Shown: piece after piece, positions 22,170 through 51,016 of the stretch | Position numbering within the stretch: position 1 is the stretch's first letter | Layout: each line of letters opens with the position of its first letter | From: Parcubacteria group bacterium | Lineage (GTDB): Bacteria; Patescibacteriota; Patescibacteriia; UBA2169 | Length of the DNA: 64,000 nt | Direction of reading: 5' to 3' | Assembly: GCA_016181765.1 (NCBI GenBank) | Contig: JACOYR010000004.1 | Span: 115,937 to 179,936 of the forward strand | Translations under genes and position numbers: made by a program | The notes under the pieces: model-generated | The model's database searches: none | Told to the model about the DNA's origin: nothing | The model's input: the letters and a program-made list of their open reading frames with translations, nothing else

Positions 22170-22208
22170 ATTTTGGGTGCAAGCAGTTTTTTCTGCTATA
22201 ATTTAGAT

Positions 22209-23165
22209 ATGCCGAAAATACATAAAAAAAGAAAAACGGTACTGGAACTTTGCGCGGGCGGTGGTGGACAATTTTTAGGATTAGAAGGGGCGGGATTTGA
22301 TTGTGTCGGCGCTGTTGAAATAGAGGAAGAGTATTGCCGAACTCTTACGCACAACCGACCCGGCCTAAACGTTATAAATTACGATTTAAAGCAATTTAAT
22401 GCGAAAAATTTTTTAGGGGTTGATTTAGTCGCAGGCGGGGTTCCCTGTCCTCCATTTTCCATTGCGGGCAAACAGCTAGGACAAAAGGACGATAGAGATT
22501 TATTTCCCTATGCGCTCAAAATAATAGGGCAAGCCGACCCAAAAGCGGTATTGCTTGAAAATGTTCCCGGCCTGGCTTCGGCAAAATTTGCAACCTACAG
22601 AAGAAATATTCAAAAAAAATTAACTGATTTGGGTTATTGGTCTGATTGGAAAATATTAAATGCTTCCGATTTTGGGGTGCCGCAATTGAGGCCTAGATTT
22701 ATATTGGTGGCGGTAAAAAACGGATTAAAAAATTTTTTTGAATGGCCGAGGACTCTCTCAACTAAAGTTACGGTTGGAGAAGCCCTCTTTGATTTAATGT
22801 CAGCCAATGGCTGGACAGGCGCGCATAAGTGGTTGAAAAAAGCAAACAATGTCGGCCCAACCTTAGTGGGAGGTTCAAAAAAACACGGCGGGCCTGATTT
22901 GGGGCCAACACGAGCGCGAGAGCAATGGAAAAATTTGGGAGTTGACGGATTAGGCATTGCCGATTCTGCTCCGGAAATAAAATTTCCACATAACAAACTA
23001 CCAAGGTTGACCGTGCGCATGACTGCCCGTATCCAGGGCTTCCCGGATTCCTGGCATTTTCCGGGGCGAAAAACTTCATCATACAGGCAAATTGGCAACG
23101 CTTTTCCACCCGCAGTCGCCAAAGCAGTTGGGTTTAGAATCATCAAAGCCATCCAAACAACATGA
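22209..23165 (+). CDS. DNA (cytosine-5)-methyltransferase (type II R-M, M subunit)
   Basis: Motif I LELCAGGGG, motif IV GGVPCPPFS, motif VI ENVPGL; AT-rich island. Confidence 0.9.
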   Translation: MPKIHKKRKTVLELCAGGGGQFLGLEGAGFDCVGAVEIEEEYCRTLTHNRPGLNVINYDLKQFNAKNFLGVDLVAGGVPCPPFSIAGKQLGQKDDRDLFPYALKIIGQADPKAVLLENVPGLASAKFATYRRNIQKKLTDLGYWSDWKILNASDFGVPQLRPRFILVAVKNGLKNFFEWPRTLSTKVTVGEALFDLMSANGWTGAHKWLKKANNVGPTLVGGSKKHGGPDLGPTRAREQWKNLGVDGLGIADSAPEIKFPHNKLPRLTVRMTARIQGFPDSWHFPGRKTSSYRQIGNAFPPAVAKAVGFRIIKAIQTT

Positions 23166-32342: not shown

Positions 32343-32850
32343 CGCGCACCCGCGCAATACGCAGGGACAACCGGACCGCGAGAGCCGCGCCAAGGCCCAC
32401 CAGCGCGCCAACTGCCGCATCCTCAACGAAGTGGACGCCGGCAAGCACGCGTCCCACGGACACCAAAAACGCCATGCCCAAAAATAGCCAGGCGTTTTTT
32501 TGTTTCATCAGGGCATAAGCGCACCCGAGCGCCCACGCGATTGCGGCATGGTCCGAGGGGTACGAGCCCCCTAAGTGCGCGGTGCTGATGAGAGCATGCG
32601 CAACCTCGCCCGAAACAAACGGCCGGGGGCGGACGATTAGGAAGCCAATCAGCGCATTAGCGCCGTACGCAAGAAGGGCGCTCCCAGCAAGGAGTATTGC
32701 CGCGCGGCGCGTGGTCCGGGCGCGCCAGAGCGCGATCAAAAGCAAAACGGCCATCACCCATATCAAATAGGACGCCAAAAAAACAACCAGGGATTCGGGC
32801 AGGCGCTCTCCCGCCTCAAACAGGGCACGGCTTGCGGATGGGCCAATCAT
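32326..32850 (-). CDS. PAP2-family phosphatase (undecaprenyl-diphosphatase-like)
   Basis: PAP2 motifs KX6RP (IVRPRPF), PSDH (YPSDHAA), SRX5HX3D (GRVLAGVHFVEDA). Confidence 0.8.
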   Translation of the reverse strand: MIGPSASRALFEAGERLPESLVVFLASYLIWVMAVLLLIALWRARTTRRAAILLAGSALLAYGANALIGFLIVRPRPFVSGEVAHALISTAHLGGSYPSDHAAIAWALGCAYALMKQKNAWLFLGMAFLVSVGRVLAGVHFVEDAAVGALVGLGAALAVRLSLRIARVRAIVSR

Positions 32851-34427
32851 ACGAGCGAGCGGGAGGCCATGTCCGCGGGAATGGGCAGGCCGAGGATAGT
32901 GAGGATGGTCGGGGCAACGTCCGAAAGCACGCCCCCAACCGTCATCTGGTGCAAGGCGAGATCGCGCTCAAGCGGTTCCGCGCGCTTGAACGCGTCCCCC
33001 ACCAGGGTGCACGGCACCGGATTGGCGCTGTGCTCTTTGATGATGTGCCCGTTTTCCCAATTCACCATCTCTTCCGCGTTTCCGTGGTCAGCGGTTATGA
33101 TGAGCACACCGCCCCGCTTGGCAACGGCGCGGGCGACCGCGGCAAGGGATTCGTCCACCGTGCGCAAACCCTGGATGGTTGCCGCGAGGTTGCCGGTGTG
33201 CCCCACCATGTCCGCGTTCGCGAAATTGGCGATGATCACGTCGTGCGCCCGGGACTGGAGGGACTCAAGGATCTTCCTGGTGATGTCCGGGGCAGACATC
33301 TCGGGCTTGTCCGCGTACGAGGCAACGCCCGCGGAGGGCACGATCACGTTCTCCTGGCCTTGGTAGCTCTTGTCCTCGCCCCCGTTGAAAAAGTAGGTCA
33401 CGTGCGCGTACTTTTCGGTTTCCGCGATATGGAGCTGTGAGAGCGAGGCTTCGGAAAGCACGCGCGAAAGCGGGTACGCAACGATTTCTTTTTTGAACGC
33501 GACCCGCACCGGAAGGTCCAGGCCGTAGGAAGACATGGCCACGAAGTAGAGGTCCGAGAGCAGGGTCCGGGGAAACTTATTGAACCCCGGCAGCACGAAC
33601 GCGGCAGTGAGCTCCCGGGCGCGGTCCGGCCGGTAGTTCGTAAAAATCACTGAATCCCCGGGCTGGACCCGGCTGGTGCCGGGATCTCCCGGATGGGAGA
33701 TGGCTGCGGGAACAAACTCCTCGTCGTACACCCCGCGTCCGTAGCTTGCCGCAAGCGCGGCAAGCGCGTCCGGAAACGTTTCCGCGGACTCGCCGCGCGC
33801 CATGGCGCGGTACACCTGCTCAATCCGGTCCCAGTGGTTGTCGCGGTCCATGGCCCAGAACCGCCCGGAGAGGGTGGCAATGGTTCCGGCCCCGAGCCGC
33901 TTGATGGCTTTATCAAGCTGCTTGAGGTAGGTTGCGGCGCTATTGTACGGCGTATCCCTGCCGTCCAGGATGAGGTGCAAAAAAACCCGCGAAAGCTTTG
34001 CCCGCGCAGCCAGTTCCAAGGTGGCGTAGATGTGGTCCGCCTGCCCGTGGATCCCCCCGTCAGAGAGGATGCCCGCAATGTGCAGACTGGAATTATGCTT
34101 CTTGCAGTGCGCAATGGCCCCCGCGAGCTCCGCGTTCTCAAAAAAGCTTCCGTTCTCAATGGCCTGGTTGATGCGCAACACGTCCTGGTACACGATCCTG
34201 CCGGCCCCGAGGTTAAGGTGCCCCACTTCGGAGTTGCCGGGCTCGCCCCAGGGCAATCCCACCGCCTCGCCGCTCGCGGCGAGGCTGAATGTCTGGTACT
34301 GCTTGAGCAAGGAGCCGTAAAACGGCAGGCGCGCCTCGGTGATGGCGTTGCCGCGCGAAGGAGGGGCAATCCCGAACCCGTCCAGAATCACGAGCGCGAG
34401 CGGTAGGTTGTTGGCGGATGCGGGCAT
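32847..34427 (-). CDS. gpmI: 2,3-bisphosphoglycerate-independent phosphoglycerate mutase, paralog 1
   Basis: Full-length iPGM with metal-binding and phosphoserine motifs. Confidence 0.9.
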   Translation of the reverse strand: MPASANNLPLALVILDGFGIAPPSRGNAITEARLPFYGSLLKQYQTFSLAASGEAVGLPWGEPGNSEVGHLNLGAGRIVYQDVLRINQAIENGSFFENAELAGAIAHCKKHNSSLHIAGILSDGGIHGQADHIYATLELAARAKLSRVFLHLILDGRDTPYNSAATYLKQLDKAIKRLGAGTIATLSGRFWAMDRDNHWDRIEQVYRAMARGESAETFPDALAALAASYGRGVYDEEFVPAAISHPGDPGTSRVQPGDSVIFTNYRPDRARELTAAFVLPGFNKFPRTLLSDLYFVAMSSYGLDLPVRVAFKKEIVAYPLSRVLSEASLSQLHIAETEKYAHVTYFFNGGEDKSYQGQENVIVPSAGVASYADKPEMSAPDITRKILESLQSRAHDVIIANFANADMVGHTGNLAATIQGLRTVDESLAAVARAVAKRGGVLIITADHGNAEEMVNWENGHIIKEHSANPVPCTLVGDAFKRAEPLERDLALHQMTVGGVLSDVAPTILTILGLPIPADMASRSLV

Positions 34428-34436
34428 AGAGGGGGC

Positions 34437-36008
34437 TTACGCCTTAAACAGGCTCTTGCCGGTCATCTCCTCGGGCTTCCGGATGCCGAAAAGGTCCAGG
34501 ATAGTGGGGGCCACATCCCCGAGGATCCCCTCCTGGCGCACCCGGGGCAGGGCAGGCCTGCCCGCGGATTCGGCGGGCCAGATCCAGCACGGAACCTGGT
34601 TCTTGGAGTGCTCGGTGTCAACGCGCCCGCTGGACAAATCTTTCATCTCCTCAATGTTGCCGTGGTCCGCGGTCACGATGAGTACGCCGCCCCTGCGCGC
34701 AACCGCATCAGCAACCGCGCCCACGGCCGCGTCCGTTGCCTTAAGCGCGATCCGTGCCGCCGCAAAGTCGCCGGTGTGCGCCACCATGTCCGTGGCCGCA
34801 ATGTTCGCGGCCACAAAATCATACCCCTCGGAAAGGGCGCGCACGATTGCTGCCGCGATTTGGGCGGTTGCCATTGCCGGAGCCTGGTCGTAGCGGTCAA
34901 CCGCGGGCGACGGGATCATGAGCCGCTTTTCGCCGGCGACCGGATCCGCGTACCCCCCGTTGAAAAAGTACGTCATGTGCGCGTACTTTTCGGTTTCCGC
35001 GATGTAGAGCTGGCGCTTGCCCGCGAGTACTGCGGGCAGGGTGCGGGTGACGTCTATGCTCGGGTAAGCCGTGAGAATGCCTTCCAGGTCCGGCCCGAAG
35101 TCCGAAAGCGCCACAAACTTCAGATTTTTTATGACCTTTTTTGGCTTGAACGTTTCCGAGTTCTTTCCGATGAAATCTTTCTGCACAAAAGGCTTGGTGA
35201 GCTGGCGCGCCCGATCCGACCGGTGGTTGAAAAAGATGATGGAATCGTTATCTTGGATCGTGCCGATGGCCCTGCCGCCCTCGCAAATGACTGTGGGCTC
35301 TATGAACTCGTCCGTAACGCCATTTTCGTAATTTGCGTCAAACACTGCAAGCGGCTCTTGGGCGCAGGGCCCCTCGCCCAAGACAATCGCGTTATAGATC
35401 CGCTCGGTCCTTGCCCACTCTTTTTTGCGGTCCATGGCAAAGAACCGGCCCGTGATGCTCGCGATTGCCTGGCCCGGGGCGAGCCGCCGCGCGAGGGACG
35501 CGCAGAGCTCGCGTCCCGCGCGCGGCGAAGAGTCCCGGCCGTCCGTGAACAAATGCACGTACACGCGCTCCACGCGTTCCCGGGACAGGAGTGCAAGCAG
35601 CGCGTACAGATGCTCGGGCGTTGCATGCGCGCTCTGGCCGTCCGAGAGCATGCCCATCAAATGCACGCGTGAGTTATTCCGCTTGGCATGGCCAATGGCT
35701 TCGCGGAACGCGGGATTTTTGTTAAAAGTGCCATCCGCGATTGACTCCGAAATGATCACCGGGTCCTGCTTGACCACCCTGCCCGCGCCCAAATTAAGGT
35801 GCCCTGCCTCGGAGTTCCCGTCCTGGTCCTTGGGCAGGCCAACGTACTGGCCGTGCGCCCAGAGCCGCGCGGTCCGCGACTCGCCCTCTATTTTATTGAA
35901 CAAGGGCAGCTCGGTTCTTGTGATGGGATTTGATTCGGAATCCGGAGCAAGCCCAAAGCCGTCCAGGACGAGCAGCACGACCGGCCCTAAAATTTTTGTG
36001 TTCTGCAT
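34437..36008 (-). CDS. gpmI: 2,3-bisphosphoglycerate-independent phosphoglycerate mutase, paralog 2 (divergent, roughly 45% identity to paralog 1 by eye)
   Basis: Same domain architecture; tandem with paralog 1. Confidence 0.9.
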   Translation of the reverse strand: MQNTKILGPVVLLVLDGFGLAPDSESNPITRTELPLFNKIEGESRTARLWAHGQYVGLPKDQDGNSEAGHLNLGAGRVVKQDPVIISESIADGTFNKNPAFREAIGHAKRNNSRVHLMGMLSDGQSAHATPEHLYALLALLSRERVERVYVHLFTDGRDSSPRAGRELCASLARRLAPGQAIASITGRFFAMDRKKEWARTERIYNAIVLGEGPCAQEPLAVFDANYENGVTDEFIEPTVICEGGRAIGTIQDNDSIIFFNHRSDRARQLTKPFVQKDFIGKNSETFKPKKVIKNLKFVALSDFGPDLEGILTAYPSIDVTRTLPAVLAGKRQLYIAETEKYAHMTYFFNGGYADPVAGEKRLMIPSPAVDRYDQAPAMATAQIAAAIVRALSEGYDFVAANIAATDMVAHTGDFAAARIALKATDAAVGAVADAVARRGGVLIVTADHGNIEEMKDLSSGRVDTEHSKNQVPCWIWPAESAGRPALPRVRQEGILGDVAPTILDLFGIRKPEEMTGKSLFKA

Positions 36009-40061: not shown

Positions 40062-43000
40062 TTAGAGGCCTAAGAGTGATTTGATGGGCGCGAACACGCG
40101 GAACGGGTTAAAGCCGGATCCAGAGGAACCCCGCTTAGTGGAAGCTCCCTGCACGGTCCCGCAGTCAGCCGGGCAGGATGACGTGGTTTCTCCGGTGCCG
40201 CAGTATGCGTTGCCGCACGTTTCCGAGGTATAGGAACTACTCCCGCAGTCGCCCGGGCACTTGGAAGAATCTTCCCCGTTGCCGCAAACGCCATCGCAAC
40301 TCGGGCCGTAATCATAGCTGCCGCTTCCAGTGCTTCCACTGCTTCCGCAGTCGCTCCAGCACGACGTGGATGTTTCGCCGCTGTCGCACGCGCCATTTCC
40401 GCAGTATGATCCCGAACTTCCGCCCGTGGCGCCGGTGCTGGAACAGCCGGTTGCGGGCGTGGCGGCACAGGAATACAGGGTTCCGTTCGCGGTGTAGTAA
40501 TTGAGCATGGACGAATCAAAACAGTTGCCGTCCGAACCCATAGTGTGCCAGCCGCTCCCGTATTTGGTGTCACAACTAGAGGTTGTTGATGTCGTGCCGC
40601 CGGTGAATGCGGAACAGCCAGGGTCCGCCGCATCAATGAAGCCATCAGCATCATTATCAACGCCGTCCGCGCATTTGAGCTGCGTGTCTTCGTAGCTGCT
40701 CGCCGCCGTTCCGCACCCGGATGATGAGTAATAGCAGTAGCTCGTTGAACCACTGCTGGTACTGGCGTACCAGCAACAATTTGAGGCAGCGGTGCACGAC
40801 GCCTGGCCAGCATACGAACCGCATGAGCCATACTGGCCGCTTGAGCCGCCGCAGTCGCTTGGGCAGCTTGAGTACGATTCATTGGACTCGCACACGCCGT
40901 CGCTGTCGCAGAATGAGCCGCTTCCCCCGCTCGTGTACGCGGAACAGCCCGGGTCCGCCGCATCAATATAGCCATCAGCATCATTGTCAACGCCGTCCGC
41001 GCATTTGAGCTGTGTGTCTTCGTAGCCGCCGCTCGTGGTTCCCCCGCAATCAGCAGGGCACGACGTGGAAGATTCGCTGGAACCGCAGATGCTGTCCCCG
41101 CACGTGTCGGTCCTGCACGCCGTAGGGCAGCCCGTGCTGCTGTAGGTACAGCCACTCGGGCACTTTGAATAGGAGCACGAGTAGGAGCCCGTGTTGTTGT
41201 TGTACGCGTTGATGGGGCACACCCCGCCGGAAGAGAGGCAGCTCGCCGGGCACCCGGTTGAATCGTAGTTGCACCCATTCGGGCATGCCTTGTAGTTGCA
41301 CGTGGTTCCGGTGGTCTGGTTGTTGTACTGGTTCGCCGGGCACGAAGGGGCGGTGTAGCAGCCCGTGGTACAGCCGGTTGAATCATAGCTGCACCCTGAC
41401 GGGCACTTCTTGTAACTGCACGAGTAGCCGCTGGTATAGTCGTTAAACTCAGTTGCCGGGCACGAAGTTGTTGTGCCGGACTTGCAGTCGCTCGGGCAGG
41501 ACGACGTGGTTTCTCCGCTTCCGCAGAATCCATTGCCGCATGTCTCCTTTACTTCTACTTCACTGGCGCCAGAACAATCCGGAATGCCGAAGTTCCTCCA
41601 GTCTCCGTCATCCCCTGCGTTGGATTTCCAGGAAAAATTCGCTTTTGGAACCTTGGTGCACTGCGCGGCAACGCCTGCGATGAAGCTTATGTACTCGCTG
41701 TCCGTGCGGTTCAAAATGTATGAGGTTTCAGTTTGGCCGTCGCTGAACTTCCAGGTCTTGCTCACCCAATTCTTGCTGCCCGGGTCTTCTGGGGCTTTCT
41801 CCGGGGCTGTGCACTTGCCCAGGAACTGGTCGTAATAATCCCCCGGGGCGCAGGTTGGGGAGCAACCCTTGGCGCAGCCAAAATTATCGTACAAGCAGTA
41901 GCTTGAGCCGCTACACGAGGGCGTGCACGAGAGCGGGCAGTTGCCCACCACCGAACTGTCCTGCCTGCAGTACCCACTGTCGTCCCACACCCAGCCGCGC
42001 TCGCACGAGCCCTTGCTTGGTGGTACGTAATCACTGCTGTTCAGGCACTTCTTGATCTGCTGTGCCCAGAACTGGCCCTTGGCGCACTCCTGGATAAAGG
42101 TTCCGCACTGCCCAAAGTATTTAACCGCAACGCCGCGAGCGCGCGCCTTGCAGTCATTGTCATAGGTGGCGTTGTCGCTGCCGCACACCGGACTGTAGAC
42201 ATCCGGGCAACCAGTTCTTCCCGTTGACTGGATGCACTCGCCGAATCGGGCGCACCCCTGCGAATCTTTGACAATGTCGCGCACCTGCCCCTCGGGACAC
42301 CCGAGCGGCGATTGCGCCGAAAGGTCCGGGCAAATGGCTACCTGCTGTATGCACGAGGGCTGGCCGCAGGGATCCCCGGGCCGGGGTGGAACAGGCTGTT
42401 CTCCGGGATTGCACGCCCGCGGCGGATTGTAAACCGCCGGACAGATGAGCGTCTGTTCGCAATACCCTCGGCTTGAGTTCCACCGCTCAAAAGGACCGCA
42501 CTGCGCAAAACCAACCGGTGGACGGTAGTAGGGGTCAACCGCGCACGAAGTTCCATTCCAGTACTGGCCAGCTGCGCATGAAACACTCGCCAAGTCAATC
42601 TCATTTTGGTACACGCACTGGTTGCGCCCCTGGTCAAAAAAGCCGCCCGGGCCGCAATCCTTGAACGTGTGTTCAACCGTTGCCCACTCGCACCCCCGAA
42701 CCCCGGGGTTCGCCGTACAGTACTGCTCGCACTGCTCCGGGGTAGTGCACTTGCCGGCCAGGGGGTTGTTCTCTTTGAAATCTTTCCGCTCCCGCTCAAT
42801 GCGGTTGCGCTCCCGCACCAAGTCGTCCGCCAGGCGCTCTTTTTCGTGCCGCGCCTCCTGCTCCAAAAACGTCAGCTGTATCTGGCGGCACGCGCTGTCG
42901 CACCAGGGGTCATTTTGCATGCGAGCCTCAAAAATCCGCTTGCGCTCGCCAAACACCTCGTCAGACCGCGATACCTGATTATTGATTTTTTCTTCCCACA

Positions 43001-44948
43001 GCGCCTTTCGGGTTCCAAAGTCTTCCCAGGAAATATCGTTGAGCTTCTCAAAAAATGCCTCCTCTTCCTGGCGCTGGACACGGTCCACCTGGAAGTTCAC
43101 CTCCCGCTCTTCATAGTCCAGCGCGGCCCGCGCAATCTCCCGCTCGCGCTCAAACTTCTGCTGTTCAACCTTGCGGACCTTGAACTGCAAGGCATCCTGG
43201 AATCCGCTGTCGCGGGCCCTGATGTCGTTGATGACGAACTCCGGCACGTCAAAGAACCGCTCGTGGAACCGGTCAAACGCTGCCGGCTCGGAAACGTCCT
43301 GCATGAACACTTTGTATTGTTCCGTGTTCTTGCGCACGAATTGGTCCTGGAACTCATCTCCAAACTGCAGATCCGCAAGAATCGCCATGTCAGAGGGATC
43401 CAGGGTTGCCACCTGGTTCAAAAACCGGTCCCCTTGCCGGCGATACTGGCTCTCAAACTGCTGGGTCATGGCCTGCTCTATCTGGTCCAAGAACTCCCGC
43501 TTTGCCGGGTCGGCTTGAACATCCTGTTCAAGGGAAGCAATCAGCTTAAAGGTCTTTGGAGAGGGATTGTTCAAAAAGTCGTCAGAGAGTTTTTGAAACC
43601 TCGCTGCCTGGTCCTGGGACTCGGCATCCTTAAACCGCTGCTTGAACGCGTCAACCGAACGGCTGTGCACCCCCTCAACGAGCTTGAATTCCTCCGAATC
43701 GGCGCTCATGCGGTTCTTAAACTCATCAAGCACAACCAAGTCCGCAACATCGTCGGTATCAAAAGACCGAAAGAACCGGTCAGAAACCTCGGGGTCGTCA
43801 ATAAGGGAGAGCTTGTCCTCAAACTTGCGGACCGCAATTTCCTTGGCCTCTTCTATCTTTGCGAGGATGTCGTCCGAAATGCCGCTTGACCGCTTGATTT
43901 CTTCCAGGATCCCGAGGAGCCGCGTTTCATCAATGGCCGCGTGCTCCAGGTACTGGGAAAACTTCTGGCCGCGCACGGCCTCGGGAATGTTCTGGATGCG
44001 GATCTCAAACTTTTGGATGGTGTTCTTTTTGGCCTGCGCAATCGCGTCTTTAACCGTAGCCGGAGCGCTGTCCCGCATGGCCTCAAGGATTTCCAAATTC
44101 TTAAGCTCCTTAAACTCGGACCCGGCCTGCTTGTCAAAGGCGCGCGTCATGCGGACGCGGACCTGATCCGGCTCATCTTCCACTCCGGCCAAGAGCTCGG
44201 TAAAATTTCCAATGGTTTTTTCCTTGGCGTCCGAAACATGCGCCACCACCTGCTCAAGCCCGGCATCCGGCTCCTCGCCCGTATCCCGCGCAAGCTGGCG
44301 CGCTTTGACTGCCTCGTCCGAAATGTCCTCCAGCACCTGCCGGTGCTTGATCTGCTTGTCCGCCACCTCGTCCAGCACGCGCTCCACCTCAAGCGGGTTG
44401 TCGGCCTTGGCGCTCTTGAGACGGGCCGTGGTCGCCCGCACATCCTCAAACTTCTTCTCAAACCGATCAATGGCGCGGTTCAGCGCGCCCGGATCCACTT
44501 GCGAAACACCTCGCTCATCAACCATCTGCTTGACCTCGGAAAGCTCCTGGTTCGCGTGCTTGAACTTAAGCTCCGCGTCCGCGACCGAGTCAAAAGTGAA
44601 CGCCTCCTGGATGCCCCAGCCAAAACGCTTGAACACGTGCAGAGGGTTATCAGGCAGGATGCGCGCCTCGCTGGTTCCCAAATCTTGAAGGCTGACACTG
44701 AAGTCCTGCACCACCTCAAGCGGAGGCTCATTTGACTGGGCTGCGGTCTGGGTAGCGCCGTCAGAAACCGGTTCTTGAGTTGCAGATTCAGCATCGCCCG
44801 CAGCCTGGTCCTGTACTGCTTGGTCTTGCGCCCCCGCAATCCCAACAAACAAAAAAGCCGCTGACAACGCGGCTACGAAAACAGACAACAACGAAAATCG
44901 TGTTGTTTGGCGGTTTAAGCGTACACTACAATATGTGCCAACCCCCAT
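40062..44948 (-). CDS. Giant membrane-anchored surface protein (1628 aa): N-terminal TM, ~700-aa charged helical stalk, C-terminal mosaic of Cys-rich modules including a Kazal-like domain, tandem ~38-aa Cys repeats, Asp-rich Ca-binding-like motifs and CGNGxCxxGET..CPxDC repeats
   Basis: Uninterrupted ORF; CPDVYSPVCGSDNATYDNDCKARARGV matches Kazal consensus; KCADGVDNDADGYIDAADPGCS occurs twice; repeats CP..YN..TG..C.Y..CP.GC.YDSTGC three times. Confidence 0.7.
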   Translation of the reverse strand: MGVGTYCSVRLNRQTTRFSLLSVFVAALSAAFLFVGIAGAQDQAVQDQAAGDAESATQEPVSDGATQTAAQSNEPPLEVVQDFSVSLQDLGTSEARILPDNPLHVFKRFGWGIQEAFTFDSVADAELKFKHANQELSEVKQMVDERGVSQVDPGALNRAIDRFEKKFEDVRATTARLKSAKADNPLEVERVLDEVADKQIKHRQVLEDISDEAVKARQLARDTGEEPDAGLEQVVAHVSDAKEKTIGNFTELLAGVEDEPDQVRVRMTRAFDKQAGSEFKELKNLEILEAMRDSAPATVKDAIAQAKKNTIQKFEIRIQNIPEAVRGQKFSQYLEHAAIDETRLLGILEEIKRSSGISDDILAKIEEAKEIAVRKFEDKLSLIDDPEVSDRFFRSFDTDDVADLVVLDEFKNRMSADSEEFKLVEGVHSRSVDAFKQRFKDAESQDQAARFQKLSDDFLNNPSPKTFKLIASLEQDVQADPAKREFLDQIEQAMTQQFESQYRRQGDRFLNQVATLDPSDMAILADLQFGDEFQDQFVRKNTEQYKVFMQDVSEPAAFDRFHERFFDVPEFVINDIRARDSGFQDALQFKVRKVEQQKFEREREIARAALDYEEREVNFQVDRVQRQEEEAFFEKLNDISWEDFGTRKALWEEKINNQVSRSDEVFGERKRIFEARMQNDPWCDSACRQIQLTFLEQEARHEKERLADDLVRERNRIERERKDFKENNPLAGKCTTPEQCEQYCTANPGVRGCEWATVEHTFKDCGPGGFFDQGRNQCVYQNEIDLASVSCAAGQYWNGTSCAVDPYYRPPVGFAQCGPFERWNSSRGYCEQTLICPAVYNPPRACNPGEQPVPPRPGDPCGQPSCIQQVAICPDLSAQSPLGCPEGQVRDIVKDSQGCARFGECIQSTGRTGCPDVYSPVCGSDNATYDNDCKARARGVAVKYFGQCGTFIQECAKGQFWAQQIKKCLNSSDYVPPSKGSCERGWVWDDSGYCRQDSSVVGNCPLSCTPSCSGSSYCLYDNFGCAKGCSPTCAPGDYYDQFLGKCTAPEKAPEDPGSKNWVSKTWKFSDGQTETSYILNRTDSEYISFIAGVAAQCTKVPKANFSWKSNAGDDGDWRNFGIPDCSGASEVEVKETCGNGFCGSGETTSSCPSDCKSGTTTSCPATEFNDYTSGYSCSYKKCPSGCSYDSTGCTTGCYTAPSCPANQYNNQTTGTTCNYKACPNGCNYDSTGCPASCLSSGGVCPINAYNNNTGSYSCSYSKCPSGCTYSSTGCPTACRTDTCGDSICGSSESSTSCPADCGGTTSGGYEDTQLKCADGVDNDADGYIDAADPGCSAYTSGGSGSFCDSDGVCESNESYSSCPSDCGGSSGQYGSCGSYAGQASCTAASNCCWYASTSSGSTSYCYYSSSGCGTAASSYEDTQLKCADGVDNDADGFIDAADPGCSAFTGGTTSTTSSCDTKYGSGWHTMGSDGNCFDSSMLNYYTANGTLYSCAATPATGCSSTGATGGSSGSYCGNGACDSGETSTSCWSDCGSSGSTGSGSYDYGPSCDGVCGNGEDSSKCPGDCGSSSYTSETCGNAYCGTGETTSSCPADCGTVQGASTKRGSSGSGFNPFRVFAPIKSLLGL

Positions 44949-45066
44949 GTGTTTTATTTTTGATTTCTTTTAGGTTGTGAGTGAAGAGGTACACTACTAT
45001 TACACCACATGCGCGGTGTTTGCACAAATGGAGTTGTGGATAACTACGCCTGGGGACTTTTGACCT

Positions 45067-45172
45067 CAATCGGCAGTGTAAATGTAAACATACTCCCCTT
45101 GCCCTCGCCCTCTGATTCGGCCCAGACGCGGCCGCCGTGCGCTTCTATAATTTTTTTGGCGATGAAAAGCCC
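45067..45172 (-). repeat. Diverged duplicate of the histidine kinase 3' end (encodes ...[40 protein letters not shown] on minus strand)
   Basis: ~106 bp aligning to 46263-46368 with differences concentrated at codon third positions. Confidence 0.75.
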
Positions 45173-45247
45173 TCTTCCGGACCCACCGGAAAATTTTGAC
45201 AAAAAACCAACACGGAATTTTCATTAACTCGGCAAGAGAAATTTAAC

Positions 45248-45285
45248 AATCAACGACCTCGGGCAGCAATGTCCAAGGTCGTTTT
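45248..45285 (+). terminator. Stem-loop acgacct...aggtcgt followed by T6
   Basis: 7-bp stem plus TTTTTT at the cassette edge. Confidence 0.4.
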
Positions 45286-45912
45286 TTACAGCGTCTTTAT
45301 CACTCCTTCAATTTTCTCTCGATCGGCCGTATTAAAATGACAGGTATCAATAAAGTGAGTATATTTTCCCGGCTCAACAGACAGCTCTCCAGCTACATAC
45401 CGTTGCAATGCCACGAACTCATTCATATTCATGAGCAGCTTTCCATAACAATCACTGGCACGCATATGTACGTGAATATCAAGCTTTCCGTCAATAATCT
45501 GAAACCATAGGATCTGTAAGCAAGGAGCTATGGATCCATGAATATCCACTTCTTGTTTCCAAATAGAGGCTTGCGCTCGTTTTCCGTTTGGTTTTTCTCT
45601 GAGATATTCAATAACATTTTGAATTTGATTTGGCTCACTGTCAAACAGGCGTTTGCGATATATCTTGGTCCAGTCATGGGTTACTTGATCTGCATGCTCA
45701 CCTGTCAGTAAGTAGTGGCTAATAGTATCTACCTGGCCTTTCGGCATACCAAAACGAATATCAAACAAATCTTGAATCGCATCTTCTACCTCAATAATCA
45801 TCGCTTCATCGCGGAATATTTCGTCATTCTCCGTGGCGCGGCCATTGTTATACAAGTCTTTCATGGCTTTTCGCCATGCCTGGCTGATAGTTGCTGTTTT
45901 TATGGTAAGCAT
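45286..45912 (-). CDS. Short thymidylate synthase-like protein (ThyA fold, methanogen-type size, 208 aa)
   Basis: SIAPCLQILWFQIIDGKLDIHVHMRASD aligns with ThyA catalytic-Cys segment (APCHxxxQFYVxDGKLSCQLYQRSxD); AT-rich. Confidence 0.55.
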   Translation of the reverse strand: MLTIKTATISQAWRKAMKDLYNNGRATENDEIFRDEAMIIEVEDAIQDLFDIRFGMPKGQVDTISHYLLTGEHADQVTHDWTKIYRKRLFDSEPNQIQNVIEYLREKPNGKRAQASIWKQEVDIHGSIAPCLQILWFQIIDGKLDIHVHMRASDCYGKLLMNMNEFVALQRYVAGELSVEPGKYTHFIDTCHFNTADREKIEGVIKTL

Positions 45913-46013
45913 TATACTGAATTCATAGTTGGTTAGGCAGTACTGCGTCCATGCCAGGGGCTAGCGGAACTCTTTTTAGTATACAACCTCTGGCGCGGAA
46001 AGGAAATCACACA

Positions 46014-46277
46014 ATGGAGCCATATATCGGTATCACCGGATTTACCACAAGGAAACAAACGGTGGTGATTGCCGACGGACTCTCGGCTGGTACTATTACG
46101 TTCCTTGATCCTTTGACCATGCATTCCTCTAAGTTAAGTATTGATGCCGAAAGTCGGCTGCGGACCGCAGATGATGAGCTCGATATAGAACGCTGTCGTG
46201 CGTATATAATTCAATCATTGAAATTTTTTAGCAGATTTGGTGCGGCCACTCTTATTCCACCGCAATCGGCAACGTAA
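46014..46277 (+). CDS. Hypothetical small protein (87 aa) inside the cassette
   Basis: ORF with plausible SD (aaggaaa); no motifs. Confidence 0.3.
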   Translation: MEPYIGITGFTTRKQTVVIADGLSAGTITFLDPLTMHSSKLSIDAESRLRTADDELDIERCRAYIIQSLKFFSRFGAATLIPPQSAT

Positions 46278-48432
46278 ATGTGAACATGGAGCCCTTGCCC
46301 TCGCCCTCTGATTCGGCCCAGACGCGGCCGCCGTGCGCTTCTATAATTTTTTTGGCGATGAAAAGCCCGAGGCCCGATCCGCCGGTGTGAATGCGCGTGG
46401 TTGCCTCTGCGCGCGTGAACTTCTGGAACAGCCTGTCCATTTCAATGGGGTCAATGCCCATTCCCGAATCCCGCACCTCAAACGTGATGAGCGACTTTGA
46501 GCGCGCAAGCCGCACGTTGACCCATCCGGTATCAGTGTACTTGATGGCATTGTCCACCAGGTTCATCATCACGTCGTGGATCTTGTCCCTATCAAGGCTC
46601 ATCGCGGGCAAAGGCCCATCCGGCTTCTGCACCGTAAGCTCTAATCCCTTGGTCTTTGCCTGATGCTGCAAGTCCCCAACCACCTCATCCACGATCTCCT
46701 CAAACCGGACGCTTGACTTGGTGAGTTCCAGCCTGCCCGTCTCAATGCGCGACACGTTCAAAAACACGTCAATGAGGCGCGTGAGCCGGTCCGAGGAGCG
46801 GAAAATGCGCTCCAATTCTCCGCGCTGTTCCGGAGTGAGTACTCCGTAATCGCCATCCAAAAACATGGACACATAGCCCTTGATGCCGGTGAGCGGAGTG
46901 CGCAATTGGTGCGCGGCGATGGAGAGGAACTCGGATTTTGACTGGTCCAGCTGCTTTAAGTGGGCGTTTGCAACCTGCAGTTCCGCGGTCGCATCATCCA
47001 CTTCTTTCTTGAGTTTGACCGCGAACTGCTGGGCTTCGTCGTAGAGCTTGGTGCGGCCCAAGGCGGTCGCCATCTGCGGGGCAAGCACGTCAAACGCATC
47101 AATAAGTTGCCTATCAAAAATATCTTTGGAAAGTTTTGGCCCCAATGCCACGATGGCAACCAGATTCCCCTCAACCATCACGCGCCGCGCAAGCGAAATG
47201 TCCAAGCCGTGGAGTTCATCAACAAGGAGCCCAATCCGCGCGTACTCGCCCTTGGTCGGAGCCTCGTTCTGCTCAAGCTCAACCTCTTCGGCCACGAGCA
47301 CCGGCTCGCTTGAGAGCGCGGAAACGAGCGTTGAACCGGCCGCAATGGCGCCCGTATCCCCGGCAAGCAGGGCATACCCGCCGCTCGCCTCATCCAGGAT
47401 GTAGACGCGCGCGTGGCGCACCTTGAGCCGCTCTTGAAGCATCATGGACACCGCGCGCACCAAACCCTCCTGGCTCACCTCCTCGGAAATGGACAGGCCC
47501 ATGTCGCGCAAGAGCTTCTGGTAATCCGGCTGGCCGCGGAAAAAAATGTTCGCCGTGATTGTGGCAAATAGCCGATCAAACGGGTCGTGTAAAAAGATGA
47601 CTAAGAGCGCGAGCACGCCCCCCACCAAGAGCGACTGCGTGCTGAATAGGTCCCTGCCGAACGCGCCGAACGCGAAGAGTACAATCTGCACGAACACGAA
47701 CGACGTTGCGAACGAAAACGCGTACTGCAGCAGGCGGCTCGCGACCAGCCGAATGCTCATAAGCTTGTACCGCACAATGGCAATGGCGATGAACGTAATC
47801 AAGAAGAGCGTAAACAAAGGCCCGAGCCAGATGTAGCGGTAGTCGCCGACCAAGGGCAAGATGAGGTTCGTGGTTGCGCCGCCTGCGGTGGTGATGAGCG
47901 TGCCCAAGAGCACGTACCGAATCTGCAGCTTCCGGATGCCGATGGACTCTCTGCCTTTGCGCCAGAGCAAAAAGAACGCAATGCCCATGTACATGATAAA
48001 GTACACAGTGTACACTACATACCCCCACCCAAGTATCACATCCTTGCCCCAGGGCTGGATGAACAGGGCCTCAATGTGGAGCGGGGTGAAGACCATGATG
48101 CAGATGGCGAGGAACGGAACTCCGAGGGCCGCCTCGGAGAGGCGCGAGATGGGGTTCTTGGCGTACGGGAACGCGCGCGCAAACAGCAGGAACACGTATG
48201 CGATGAATGCCGCGGAAATGTAGTAGAGCCGGGCCCAGTTGAGGGCGTGCGAGAGCGTATCCGTGCTCTCAAAAAACGCCAATCCGAGCGACCAGCCGAA
48301 GATGCCCAAGGTTACCAGGCCGAATGCTACGTTGATGCGGCTCCTCGCGAGGCGCGCGAAAATCAAAAACCCAAGGACAAGGTTGAGCCCTCCAAACACC
48401 AGCAAAACTATGTCCCTGGGGTCAAACGCCAT
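46252..48432 (-). CDS. Sensor histidine kinase with multi-TM sensor domain (7TM-like), HisKA and HATPase_c domains
   Basis: H-box (SIAAHQLRTPL), N, G1, G2 boxes (GGSGLGL); N-terminal ~7 TM helices. Confidence 0.9.
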   Translation of the reverse strand: MAFDPRDIVLLVFGGLNLVLGFLIFARLARSRINVAFGLVTLGIFGWSLGLAFFESTDTLSHALNWARLYYISAAFIAYVFLLFARAFPYAKNPISRLSEAALGVPFLAICIMVFTPLHIEALFIQPWGKDVILGWGYVVYTVYFIMYMGIAFFLLWRKGRESIGIRKLQIRYVLLGTLITTAGGATTNLILPLVGDYRYIWLGPLFTLFLITFIAIAIVRYKLMSIRLVASRLLQYAFSFATSFVFVQIVLFAFGAFGRDLFSTQSLLVGGVLALLVIFLHDPFDRLFATITANIFFRGQPDYQKLLRDMGLSISEEVSQEGLVRAVSMMLQERLKVRHARVYILDEASGGYALLAGDTGAIAAGSTLVSALSSEPVLVAEEVELEQNEAPTKGEYARIGLLVDELHGLDISLARRVMVEGNLVAIVALGPKLSKDIFDRQLIDAFDVLAPQMATALGRTKLYDEAQQFAVKLKKEVDDATAELQVANAHLKQLDQSKSEFLSIAAHQLRTPLTGIKGYVSMFLDGDYGVLTPEQRGELERIFRSSDRLTRLIDVFLNVSRIETGRLELTKSSVRFEEIVDEVVGDLQHQAKTKGLELTVQKPDGPLPAMSLDRDKIHDVMMNLVDNAIKYTDTGWVNVRLARSKSLITFEVRDSGMGIDPIEMDRLFQKFTRAEATTRIHTGGSGLGLFIAKKIIEAHGGRVWAESEGEGKGSMFTFTLPIAVE

Positions 48433-49304: not shown

Positions 49305-49991
49305 TCAAGCGAGCAATTGCGCGTCAAGGCGCCTGGCTTCCTTCTTGAAAAATGCCTTGATGGTTTTCCAGTTTGCATCAAAGTAGGTCTCTGGCATGGG
49401 GTCATTCTCCGCATCATCAAAGTACGCAAGGCTCTTGATGAAGTGCGGAACGTTGTGCTCCTGATCGGGATACTGGTTCGGGACGCGCTTGAGAACGCCA
49501 ATGAGCGGCTCCCGATGCTTCGCGTACCAGTACAAATCAACAAAATCCCGCTTGCGGCCGCGCTGGGAAAGGGCAATGATTTTCATGACCGCAATGTCTT
49601 CCGGAACCAGCATGCGCACGTTGCCGCATGCGACGAGCCGAGGCGACGGGCGGAAAAAGGGATAGGCGATAAAACTCATTTTCACGCCTTTCAGCGTTCC
49701 GTAGAGCGTTCCGTTTTCCTGGTACGTAGTTTTCCACTGTTCAGTTGCGACAAGCGACCGCTCCAGCAAGGCTTTATTGAACTCGGCGTACGGGATGAAG
49801 AAATCAAGATCAACGGATTTCCGGTGCCCGACCTGCAGCGCGAGCGCGGTGCCGCCAGCGAGGTACCAGTCTGTGTTTTTGAGCAGCGGCAACTCGGCGA
49901 GGTACAAAAATGCCCGCCCGGTTGCGCGGGGGAGCGCATCAAGATGCAAATCATCGGGATTGGCTTTTTCTACCGAAAGACGAGCGACCAT
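49305..49991 (-). CDS. AbiEii/DUF1814-family nucleotidyltransferase (type IV TA toxin-like), copy 1
   Basis: YLAGGTALALQVGHRKSVDLDFF motif. Confidence 0.65.
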   Translation of the reverse strand: MVARLSVEKANPDDLHLDALPRATGRAFLYLAELPLLKNTDWYLAGGTALALQVGHRKSVDLDFFIPYAEFNKALLERSLVATEQWKTTYQENGTLYGTLKGVKMSFIAYPFFRPSPRLVACGNVRMLVPEDIAVMKIIALSQRGRKRDFVDLYWYAKHREPLIGVLKRVPNQYPDQEHNVPHFIKSLAYFDDAENDPMPETYFDANWKTIKAFFKKEARRLDAQLLA

Positions 49992-50320: not shown

Positions 50321-51016
50321 TTACTTATCGCTCTCAAGACGCGCCTTTAGCAAAAAAATGGTTTCCGAGCGGAGTTTTGCCCGGGCCCAGTCTTTCTGGC
50401 TCTCAGTCAAAAATTCGCCGAGGCCGTCCAAGATGCTCCGATTGTTCATGCGCTCCAAGAGCTCAATGCACTTCTGCGCCGTTTCCGCGTACGGCATGCC
50501 TGCTCTCTTTTCCACGATCTTTCTGTTAATCGGCCAGTTGTTTTTTGCAAAAAAATACACGTCAAAAACATCCCGGCTCGTTTTGCCGAGGCGCTCGTAC
50601 AAAGCCATGAGCTTATTGGCAAACATATCTTCGGCAACCTGCACCAGCATGGAGATGCCGAGCAGCGTTTTGAGTTCATAACGGGAACCGAATGTCCTGC
50701 GGTTGACCTCAATCTTTATGTTTTGGGCCCTGGCATCGTAGGAAAGAATGATGATTGCGCTGTAGCGCTTGAGCCGCGACTCCCGTATGTCGCCGTAGCC
50801 GCGGGCAATCGTTTCCAGTTTCTCAAATACTTCTTTTTCTTTGCGTTCGTCCAAGAGATCAAAATCAAGATCAACCGAATAACGGTTCAAATGGTAAAAC
50901 AGGAGCGCCGCGGTTCCGCCTTTAAAGCCGAGGTGCGGGGCAATGGCTGTGTCAGTGTATATGTCCTTGAGCATCCGGAGCTGTATGTTTTTGTGTTTTG
51001 AATAATCAAATGCCAT
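50321..51016 (-). CDS. AbiEii/DUF1814-family nucleotidyltransferase, copy 2
   Basis: GFKGGTAALLFYHLNRYSVDLDFD motif. Confidence 0.7.
   Translation of the reverse strand: MAFDYSKHKNIQLRMLKDIYTDTAIAPHLGFKGGTAALLFYHLNRYSVDLDFDLLDERKEKEVFEKLETIARGYGDIRESRLKRYSAIIILSYDARAQNIKIEVNRRTFGSRYELKTLLGISMLVQVAEDMFANKLMALYERLGKTSRDVFDVYFFAKNNWPINRKIVEKRAGMPYAETAQKCIELLERMNNRSILDGLGEFLTESQKDWARAKLRSETIFLLKARLESDK

Follow-up and report, generated by a model that had tools for sequence, protein, structure and literature searches.

A putative minimal thymidylate synthase gene, apparently acquired by horizontal transfer, in a Parcubacteria group bacterium

On the 64,000-nucleotide stretch of Parcubacteria-group DNA that we analyzed, referred to here as the window, a short gene probably encodes a functional, minimal, pterin-dependent thymidylate synthase (TS) that was acquired horizontally. 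We give this reading, which draws on sequence comparison, a probability of about 60%. The gene is an open reading frame of 208 aa that runs from ATG to stop at positions 45286-45912 on the minus strand, and it belongs to subtype A of its family, with a Lys111/Ala152/Asn194 signature. An earlier sequence-only reading of the window had given exactly these coordinates, with no strand, and had proposed acquired dTMP synthesis as one possible role. That role is still the most likely one, given residues Asn162, Asp154 and Ile128 of the protein and the pyrimidine-nucleotide neighborhoods of its relatives. If this simple reading holds, an ultra-small, host-dependent bacterium has gained a DNA-precursor enzyme by horizontal transfer, and the footprint of that transfer is unusually clean, consisting of one gene with a terminator of its own and the duplicated end of the target gene. 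As a single gene this is a modest finding; the family-level pattern described below is the part of more interest.

The exact 208-aa protein has a database entry, as a hypothetical protein on a 281-kb contig from a Parcubacteria-group metagenome-assembled genome (MAG). It matches the family profile PF00303 with 52.9 bits (gathering score 24.3; E = 3.8e-14), with only residues 91-202 aligned, and the TS family match that the sequence-only reading anticipated was therefore found. This score, together with the Pro-Cys pair, Arg151 and Arg112, places the protein in the TS/dCMP hydroxymethylase superfamily. Its best NCBIfam match is TIGR03283, the methanogen type, which aligns end to end (residues 3-198 with model positions 2-198 of 201) and scores 96.6 bits (E = 1.3e-27), far less than the 174.55 that its equivalog cutoff demands. 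The sequence-only reading had named this model and likened the protein in size to the methanogen-type ThyA: the full-length alignment and the short, archaeal-type size and architecture bear it out, but the score stops short of the equivalog. The canonical ThyA model TIGR03284 scores 46.8 bits against a cutoff of 108.35, and the PRK01827 models give 50 bits or less against cutoffs of 325 or higher. That both TS equivalog cutoffs are missed counts against a dTMP synthase. An AlphaFold2 model built with 62 homologues has a mean pLDDT of 96.2 and a pTM of 0.92.

To place individual residues, we aligned the protein with the verified E. coli ThyA (b2827), to which it is only 17-19% identical; residue numbers of the window protein count Met1. 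The segment IAPCLQILWFQIIDGKLDIHVHMRASD is present, and Cys131 aligns with E. coli Cys146. Conserved positions are Arg34 (E. coli Arg21), Tyr85 (Tyr94), Arg112 (Arg127'), Pro130-Cys131 (Pro145-Cys146), Arg151 (Arg166), Asp154 (Asp169), Asn162 (Asn177) and His192 (His207). Five others are changed: Lys111 (Arg126'), Leu132 (His147), Ala152 (Ser167), Asn194 (Tyr209) and, conservatively, Ile128 (Leu143). The catalytic motif announced by the sequence-only reading is thus right in its cysteine and wrong in its "RSxD", which reads R-A-S-D, with Ala152 in place of Ser167. Across the family, the equivalents of the catalytic Pro-Cys, Arg166 and Arg127' occur in every member that has a residue at those columns.

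Published rules for the superfamily allow these states to be interpreted. Asn177 selects uracil, and Asp at that position selects cytosine; a hydrophobic residue 143 excludes water and leads to a methyl product, and hydroxymethylases have Asp or Glu there; folate enzymes keep Asp169, which the flavin-dependent 5-hydroxy-dCMP synthases replace by Asn; and the ribonucleotide-preferring enzymes MilA and BcmA have Ala for Ser167 and Lys for Arg126' (PMC13326640, PMC5175136). By these rules the window protein carries the functional signature of a TS, with Asn162 for uracil, Asp154 for the pterin and Ile128 as the water-excluding hydrophobic residue. The hydroxymethylase signature is missing, as Ile128 is not acidic and Asn162 is not Asp, and the D169N and N177D pair of the flavin-dependent synthases is absent at Asp154 and Asn162. 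The deoxyribose-specific pocket is missing as well. All three sugar-contact positions (Arg126' to Lys, Ser167 to Ala, Tyr209 to Asn) differ from deoxy-specific enzymes, which counts against a dTMP synthase; Glu58 cannot be aligned, and the chain is about 40 residues short.

The shortening has a definite pattern. Compared with E. coli ThyA, about 24 residues of internal loops are absent (the Glu58 helix segment, the Trp80/Trp83 insert and the 99-107 loop), as are about 40 C-terminal residues that include the folate-closing tail. The N-terminus, which had been described as truncated, is present but divergent, with the Arg21 equivalent aligned; the losses are internal and C-terminal. The C-terminal substrate-binding region that was said to be retained survives in His207 but not in Tyr209 or the tail, and the folate-binding residues, flagged for inspection at the same time, show the same division, with the Asp169 equivalent kept and the closing tail gone. 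Carreras, Climie and Santi reportedly found in 1992 that L. casei TS without its C-terminal residue loses dTMP formation and keeps partial reactions, so the hydride transfer that a tail-less enzyme would have to perform counts against a dTMP synthase. The ThyAs of Thermofilaceae and Hodarchaeota are likewise short, and the missing Glu58 and C-terminal tail are therefore general to short-type ThyAs.

The protein belongs to a family, here called the mini-TS family, of about 115 clusters at 90% identity in a word-indexed search. Core-family members with a taxon label are all bacterial and come from Andersen-, Magasanik- and Dojkabacteria and other Patescibacteria, as well as from Planctomycetota, Nitrospirota, Bacteroidota, Aminicenantes and Chitinispirillaceae. 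They are on record without a name or with the automatic name "thymidylate synthase", and we found no report on the family in the literature searched. An exhaustive HMM search of 1.84 billion representatives returned only 27 clusters at E <=1e-30, below which it met a long continuum of other short TS-like proteins, and just 14 of 185,579 species genomes carry the family. The nearest homologues of the window gene are CPR genes with 71-76% identity, from genomes of 35-49% GC. Compared with these relatives, the window gene has a dN/dS of about 0.08, a value obtained with saturated synonymous sites and reflecting mostly its history before transfer. All 22 of the 22 family-invariant residues are kept in the window protein. 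As judged from sequence, the gene shows purifying selection and retained function.

No core-family member has the Arg/Ser pair at the two sugar-contact positions; Lys/Ala with the Asn/Asp/Ile states occurs in 69 and Pro/Thr in about 33. The Tyr209 position is Asn in 68 members and His in 36. TIGR03283 scores of the relatives range from 51 to 133 bits, and ten outgroup proteins all fall under the cutoff of that model. The nearest outgroup lies in DPANN archaea (Woesearchaeota and Nanobdellota), whose proteins have Lys/Ala and keep Tyr209; a homologue search seeded with one protein, P0117, returned a single Nanobdellota protein. For archaeal residues we used the Thermofilaceae and Hodarchaeota ThyAs. 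Because these archaeal short ThyAs keep Arg/Ser/Tyr, the change in the sugar pocket is derived in the mini-TS branch. Archaeal short ThyAs are themselves poorly characterized (PMC9012536, PMC9931769). By sequence, we conclude that the mini-TS proteins are a rare bacterial family, kin to the archaeal short ThyAs and closest to those of DPANN archaea.

Across about 50 loci, the sugar-pocket signature predicts gene context. The Lys/Ala(Thr)/Asn genes face a convergent operon of GTP-cyclohydrolase-II-like, PyrF and Gmk-like genes at a distance of 45-100 nt, in 14 of the 15 distinct loci with enough flank. This operon ends in the Gmk-like gene and usually includes PyrF, and a place beside it is the usual CPR home of the gene. 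The neighboring PyrF is a bona fide type-2 enzyme (190.9 bits against an equivalog cutoff of 110.6); the cyclohydrolase-like and Gmk-like neighbors miss their own equivalog cutoffs. The Pro/Thr/His genes have a different partner, a membrane-anchored protein of 228-268 aa encoded upstream, usually 4 bp away, at 10 of 10 loci in at least five phyla. It has no match in Pfam, NCBIfam, PADLOC or PHROGs. The single Lys/Ala/Tyr member, from Magasanikbacteria (L022), is followed 3 bp downstream by a bona fide dCTP deaminase gene (106.9 bits against a cutoff of 92.8), which is translationally coupled to the TS-like gene, and then by a NUDIX gene. In Magnetomonas, the pair immediately precedes dnaE. PADLOC gave no match for the TS-like or partner proteins, and we set a role in a defense system aside. 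The pyrimidine and DNA-precursor contexts of the relatives speak for a role in nucleotide biosynthesis, and the association with dCTP deaminase suggests dUMP as the substrate. None of these partners (Gmk-like, PyrF, Dcd or cyclohydrolase) is encoded within the 64-kb window, which also has no second TS-like gene and no genuine ORF with a ThyX motif. Neither folA nor glyA nor any further folate gene was seen near the TS-like gene, which counts against a dTMP synthase.

The sequence-only reading had put the gene on an inserted cassette, and the anatomy of the locus agrees. A low-GC insert of about 1.07 kb (45190-46258), defined by its GC content and by a direct repeat, holds the TS-like gene, a terminator and a 339-bp non-coding stretch. 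Its GC content is 0.425 against 0.556 for the window, and GC3 is 0.40 in the TS-like gene against 0.76 in the adjoining histidine kinase gene. This neighbor (46252-48432, minus strand) is an intact, full-length sensor histidine kinase of 726 aa, with a HisKA/HATPase-type C-terminus read from its sequence. The insert is enclosed by a 127-nt direct repeat. Comparison of repeats and ORFs shows that the right copy (46259-46385, minus strand) is the 3' end in use by the kinase and that the left copy (45063-45189, minus strand) is an orphan duplicate of it, coding for a 42-letter peptide within a 52-aa ORF at 45044-45202. The copies are 88% identical, with diverged edges and a perfectly identical core of 77 nt (45096-45172 and 46292-46368). 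As in a mobile element, direct repeats thus enclose DNA of foreign composition at a host gene's 3' end, and the 1.07-kb insert contains no recombinase or integrase ORF.

Past the stop codon of the TS-like gene by 3 nt, RNA folding predicts a terminator-like hairpin (45252-45283, minus strand) with an 11-bp stem followed by a U-rich stretch, at -20.3 kcal/mol and z = -3.3. The closest relatives are similar at the nucleotide level (76%) over no more than the coding sequence and 31 nt, up to a point inside their TS-Gmk spacer; in one relative (L011) the similarity reaches 45255, that is, into the hairpin region. On the other side, a non-coding leader of 339 bp (45913-46251, minus strand) separates the kinase stop from the TS-like start and presumably holds the promoter. 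A scan found no recognizable promoter or Shine-Dalgarno sequence for the gene; inspection by eye alone shows an extended -10-like TGTATACT some 70 nt ahead of its ATG. The leader has no nucleotide similarity to the relatives' flanks, and its ORFs at 45951-46277 and 45933-46124 have no Pfam or PHROG match. We also considered a riboswitch or other structured RNA in the leader and rejected it, Rfam having given only a chance lncRNA match (E = 0.47).

Independent assemblies support most of the arrangement. At least three independent read sets yielded the sequence of the TS-like gene. One Logan contig (L002) spans the left flank together with the left repeat and the insert, and two others (L003 and L004) connect the insert with the edge specific to the right copy. 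For the connection between the repeat core and the kinase body, the support is the MAG assembly. An empty site, in which the left flank would run through a single repeat copy into the kinase body, had no match in JGI metagenomes, and the exact kinase protein is not on record on other contigs. The non-coding DNA of the insert matches none of about 55 related loci; we rejected a recurrent mobile cassette, as similarity to these loci is confined to the coding sequence and 31 nt. In every relative the TS-like gene is AT-richer than its flanks, by 5-9 GC points. The contrast in the window is much larger, as would fit a gene that came recently from a CPR donor of lower GC content. An earlier case of a putative thyA passing into Patescibacteria has been published (PMC12455944).

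The enzyme that we propose would be a homodimeric, short-type TS. Its Cys131 would attack C6 of a uracil nucleotide, most likely dUMP, and the methylene would come from a one-carbon donor of the pterin type (methylene-tetrahydrofolate or a similar compound) that Asp154 holds, so that the product would be a C5-methyl nucleotide, dTMP. The gene alone, with its own terminator, would have come from a lower-GC CPR donor. Integration may have proceeded from a small circular DNA that carried a copy of the kinase 3' end, by a single crossover, homologous or site-specific, which would have duplicated the 127 nt and left the kinase intact. Expression of the gene in its Parcubacteria host would complete the scheme.

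The sugar pocket raises the question of whether deoxyribonucleotides are the substrate. The main rival reading, though rather unlikely in our view, is that the enzyme combines TS chemistry with another sugar specificity and converts UMP, or both UMP and dUMP, to 5-methyl-UMP or a related product, which in the native context the Gmk-like neighbor could phosphorylate in a ribonucleotide route to thymine nucleotides or a modified-nucleotide pathway. Lys111 and Ala152 correspond to Lys133' and Ala176 of MilA, and an A176S/K133R double mutant of MilA has its preference reversed from CMP to dCMP (PMC5175136). MilA with Ala176 still takes dCMP, however, so the Lys/Ala pair permits ribonucleotide use and does not enforce it. 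Tyr209, a ligand of the 3'-OH in TS, is replaced by Asn or His in 104 of the 115 members, and the retention of Arg/Ser/Tyr by archaeal short ThyAs marks the replacement as derived; yet the one operonic partner in the Lys/Ala branch is a dCTP deaminase, a supplier of dUMP, and the member beside it keeps Tyr209. The conserved neighbor PyrF makes UMP, and the neighboring P-loop kinase, of a divergent, Gmk/PhnN-like kind, falls short of every equivalog cutoff, but their operon is convergent to the TS-like gene, with no co-transcription. Fold searches place MilA and 9iqc above TS; against this, the DPANN relatives with Lys/Ala are automatically annotated as TS, and a cellular use for 5-methyl-UMP in a minimal genome is not known. 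A broader proposal, which we think unlikely, is that the whole mini-TS family represents new activities that modify uracil nucleotides at C5, marked by remodeled sugar pockets and two exclusive sets of partners. If it were true, for example as methylation at the UMP level followed by phosphorylation and reduction, ultra-small bacteria would have an unrecognized route to thymine nucleotides. For the Pro/Thr/His subtype, a membrane-coupled function apart from housekeeping dTMP supply is possible.

Two alternatives remain. That the gene currently serves no purpose, as a passenger that is silent or redundant with a resident thyX or thyA and bound to decay, seems improbable. It has been parted from the operon found beside nearly all Lys/Ala/Asn relatives, lacks a promoter or Shine-Dalgarno sequence that the scan would recognize, and has an unameliorated GC content that indicates recent arrival; dTMP synthesis is, moreover, already in the core Patescibacteria repertoire (PMC12455944). 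But the ORF is intact with every family-invariant residue in place, it brings its own terminator hairpin, and the sequence reappears in independent read sets; the low dN/dS also speaks for function, with the reservation on pre-transfer history made above. Least probable by far is the phage-derived hydroxymethylase or hydroxylase for DNA hypermodification, which would use folate to make 5-hydroxymethyl-dUMP or -dCMP, or flavin to make 5-hydroxy-dCMP. The sequence-only reading had offered a pyrimidine hydroxymethylase of phage origin, and the acquired DNA with toxin-antitoxin genes near it gives the idea some appeal. It does not withstand the residue states, since the Asn177, Asp169 and hydrophobic Leu143 positions are all in the TS state, or the ancestry of the gene, whose closest relatives are cellular CPR genes and whose family contexts are all cellular. 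A tblastn search of 50,697 phage records and searches of PHROGs and BFVD returned generic TS matches only, at 21-36% identity, with no phage-genome relative above 36%, and we discarded a phage origin. The insert carries no glycosyltransferase, dNMP kinase or other phage gene.

Beyond this locus, the protein, which we prefer to read as a minimal pterin-dependent TS, belongs to a rare, uncharacterized bacterial branch of the TS superfamily that links CPR bacteria and DPANN archaea. This branch misses every curated TS equivalog model and has the residue pair that switches a TS-fold enzyme from deoxyribonucleotides to ribonucleotides. Recent work has shown flavin use and cytosine hydroxylation by short TS homologues, so the name "thymidylate synthase" given automatically to short proteins merits testing, and the mini-TS family, with two contexts linked to signatures, is a tractable test case.

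The solved structures nearest to the protein are superfamily members other than TS: Foldseek lists MilA first and the dCMP hydroxylase of phage HY126 (9iqu) third. This ranking arises largely because of a common compact architecture, and the diagnostic residues differ. The CMP 5-hydroxymethylases MilA and BcmA (PDB 5jnh, 5b6d) resemble the window protein at the sugar-contact pair, where a profile-to-MilA alignment sets GKRAQ against SKRAV and MRAsD against MRAND. MilA, in contrast, has Asp both in place of Asn177 (cytosine) and in place of Leu143 (hydroxymethyl), keeps Glu68 and Tyr218, and is a 318-aa protein of an antibiotic biosynthesis cluster. The flavin-dependent 5-hydroxy-dCMP synthases of phages (HY126 AfhB, PDB 9iqu/9iqc, identified through the PDB titles and PMC13326640; RB69 gp48) have D169N and N177D and keep Ser167, whereas the window protein has Asp, Asn and Ala at these diagnostic positions. 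With canonical E. coli ThyA it shares the fold, the Cys-Arg-Asp-Asn core and the signature residues for uracil and pterin, but it is without Glu58, His147, Ser167, Tyr209, the small-domain inserts and about 40 C-terminal residues.

The likeness is closer to the archaeal enzymes. TIGR03283 describes the TS of methanogenic archaea that use tetrahydromethanopterin. Bacterial hosts of the mini-TS family are not known to have tetrahydromethanopterin metabolism, and the window host is a Parcubacteria MAG outside the archaeal occurrence of that type. Because it scores under the equivalog cutoff, the window protein is not the methanogen-type enzyme itself. Like the archaeal short ThyAs (about 200-235 aa), it has no Glu58 segment, Trp80/83 insert or C-terminal tail, has Leu for His147 and an LQxLWF motif, and keeps Cys, Arg166, Asp169, Asn177 and His207. 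At the sugar contacts, the Thermofilaceae and Hodarchaeota proteins have Arg/Ser/Tyr and the window protein has Lys/Ala/Asn. The short TS-like proteins of DPANN archaea, from Woesearchaeota (MCX6706849.1, our P0118) and Nanobdellota (P0263), which reach about 206 bits in the exhaustive profile search, are archaeal and uncharacterized and differ in keeping Tyr209; they have Lys126/Ala167 and the overall architecture in common with the window protein.

Each mini-TS gene (a short gene of the thymidylate synthase superfamily) of the Pro/Thr/His subtype, named for its residues at the positions of E. coli ThyA Arg126', Ser167 and Tyr209, is preceded by a gene for a membrane-anchored protein of 228-268 amino acids that ends about 4 bp before it. 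This arrangement holds at 10 of the 10 loci counted, with the partner gene at 9310-9996 in L009, at 7190-7996 in L014 and as the gene preceding the TS-like one in L025, L027, L028, L049-L052 and L054. Between L009 and L014 the partner proteins share 40% identity (E = 3e-53), and searches of Pfam, NCBIfam, PADLOC and PHROG returned no match for the protein. The hosts of the pair include Nitrospirota, Planctomycetota, Chitinispirillaceae and Aminicenantes, among others. The membrane-anchored protein and the Pro/Thr/His mini-TS form a conserved two-gene module.

Relatives of the Lys/Ala/Asn subtype, the one to which the window copy belongs, have a different neighbor. This is a conserved operon, always convergent to the mini-TS gene, that encodes a GTP-cyclohydrolase-II-like protein, a type-2 PyrF and a Gmk/PhnN-like kinase, as in L005 (6494-8732) and, equivalently, in L013, L018, L019, L021, L032, L035, L037, L039, L040, L042, L044, L046 and L056. 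Only PyrF scores above its cutoff; the GTP-cyclohydrolase-II-like protein falls below (94 bits against 148), as does the divergent kinase (67-81 bits against 160).

Within the 339-bp non-coding leader of the insert, the low-GC segment carrying the window's TS-like gene, lie two small ORFs of 108 aa (45951-46277, plus strand) and 63 aa (45933-46124, minus strand). Neither matches Pfam or PHROG, and they are probably not genes. Immediately beside the insert, the minus strand encodes a 1628-aa protein (40062-44948) whose N-terminal domain is DUF5667 and whose long, repetitive C-terminal half is rich in Cys, Ser, Thr and Gly; it is probably secreted or surface-located. Elsewhere in the window, on the minus strand, cofactor-independent phosphoglycerate mutase is encoded by two full-length paralogues in tandem (32847-34427 and 34437-36008) that adjoin enolase and phosphoglycerate kinase, an unusual duplication for a reduced genome.

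The region around the insert seems to take up foreign DNA readily. Genes for two AbiEii-family nucleotidyltransferase toxins of type IV toxin-antitoxin systems (49305-49991 and 50321-51016, minus strand) lie 3-5 kb from it in a stretch of lower GC (0.48-0.53). A second low-GC island at 22-24 kb (GC about 0.44) contains a C5 cytosine DNA methyltransferase gene (22173-23165, plus strand; PF00145, E = 3.6e-69) and is probably an acquired restriction-modification locus. In the Bdellovibrionota locus L026, the mini-TS gene has a tyrosine recombinase of the phage integrase family (912-1931) some 2 kb upstream of it, a hint that mobile DNA carries the gene in other lineages too.

An outlying relative with 40% identity, in the complete Saccharibacteria genome CP025011 (L029:9986-10621, and L053), has lost phosphate-binding residues: Arg166 is replaced by Asn (HANSSD) and Arg126/Arg127 by Gly-Glu. 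This protein may have lost its activity or been repurposed. Among the TS-like representatives, many short ones (200-220 aa) combine D169N and N177D with Ala at the Ser167 position (P0144, P0150, P0165, P0168, P0173, P0180, P0183, P0184, P0191, P0204, P0216, P0217, P0225 and P0232). Most have Lys at the Arg126 position, with Arg kept in P0150, P0191 and P0204. These proteins may be 5-hydroxy-CMP synthases instead of 5-hydroxy-dCMP synthases; D169N together with N177D is the signature of flavin 5-hydroxy-cytosine enzymes.
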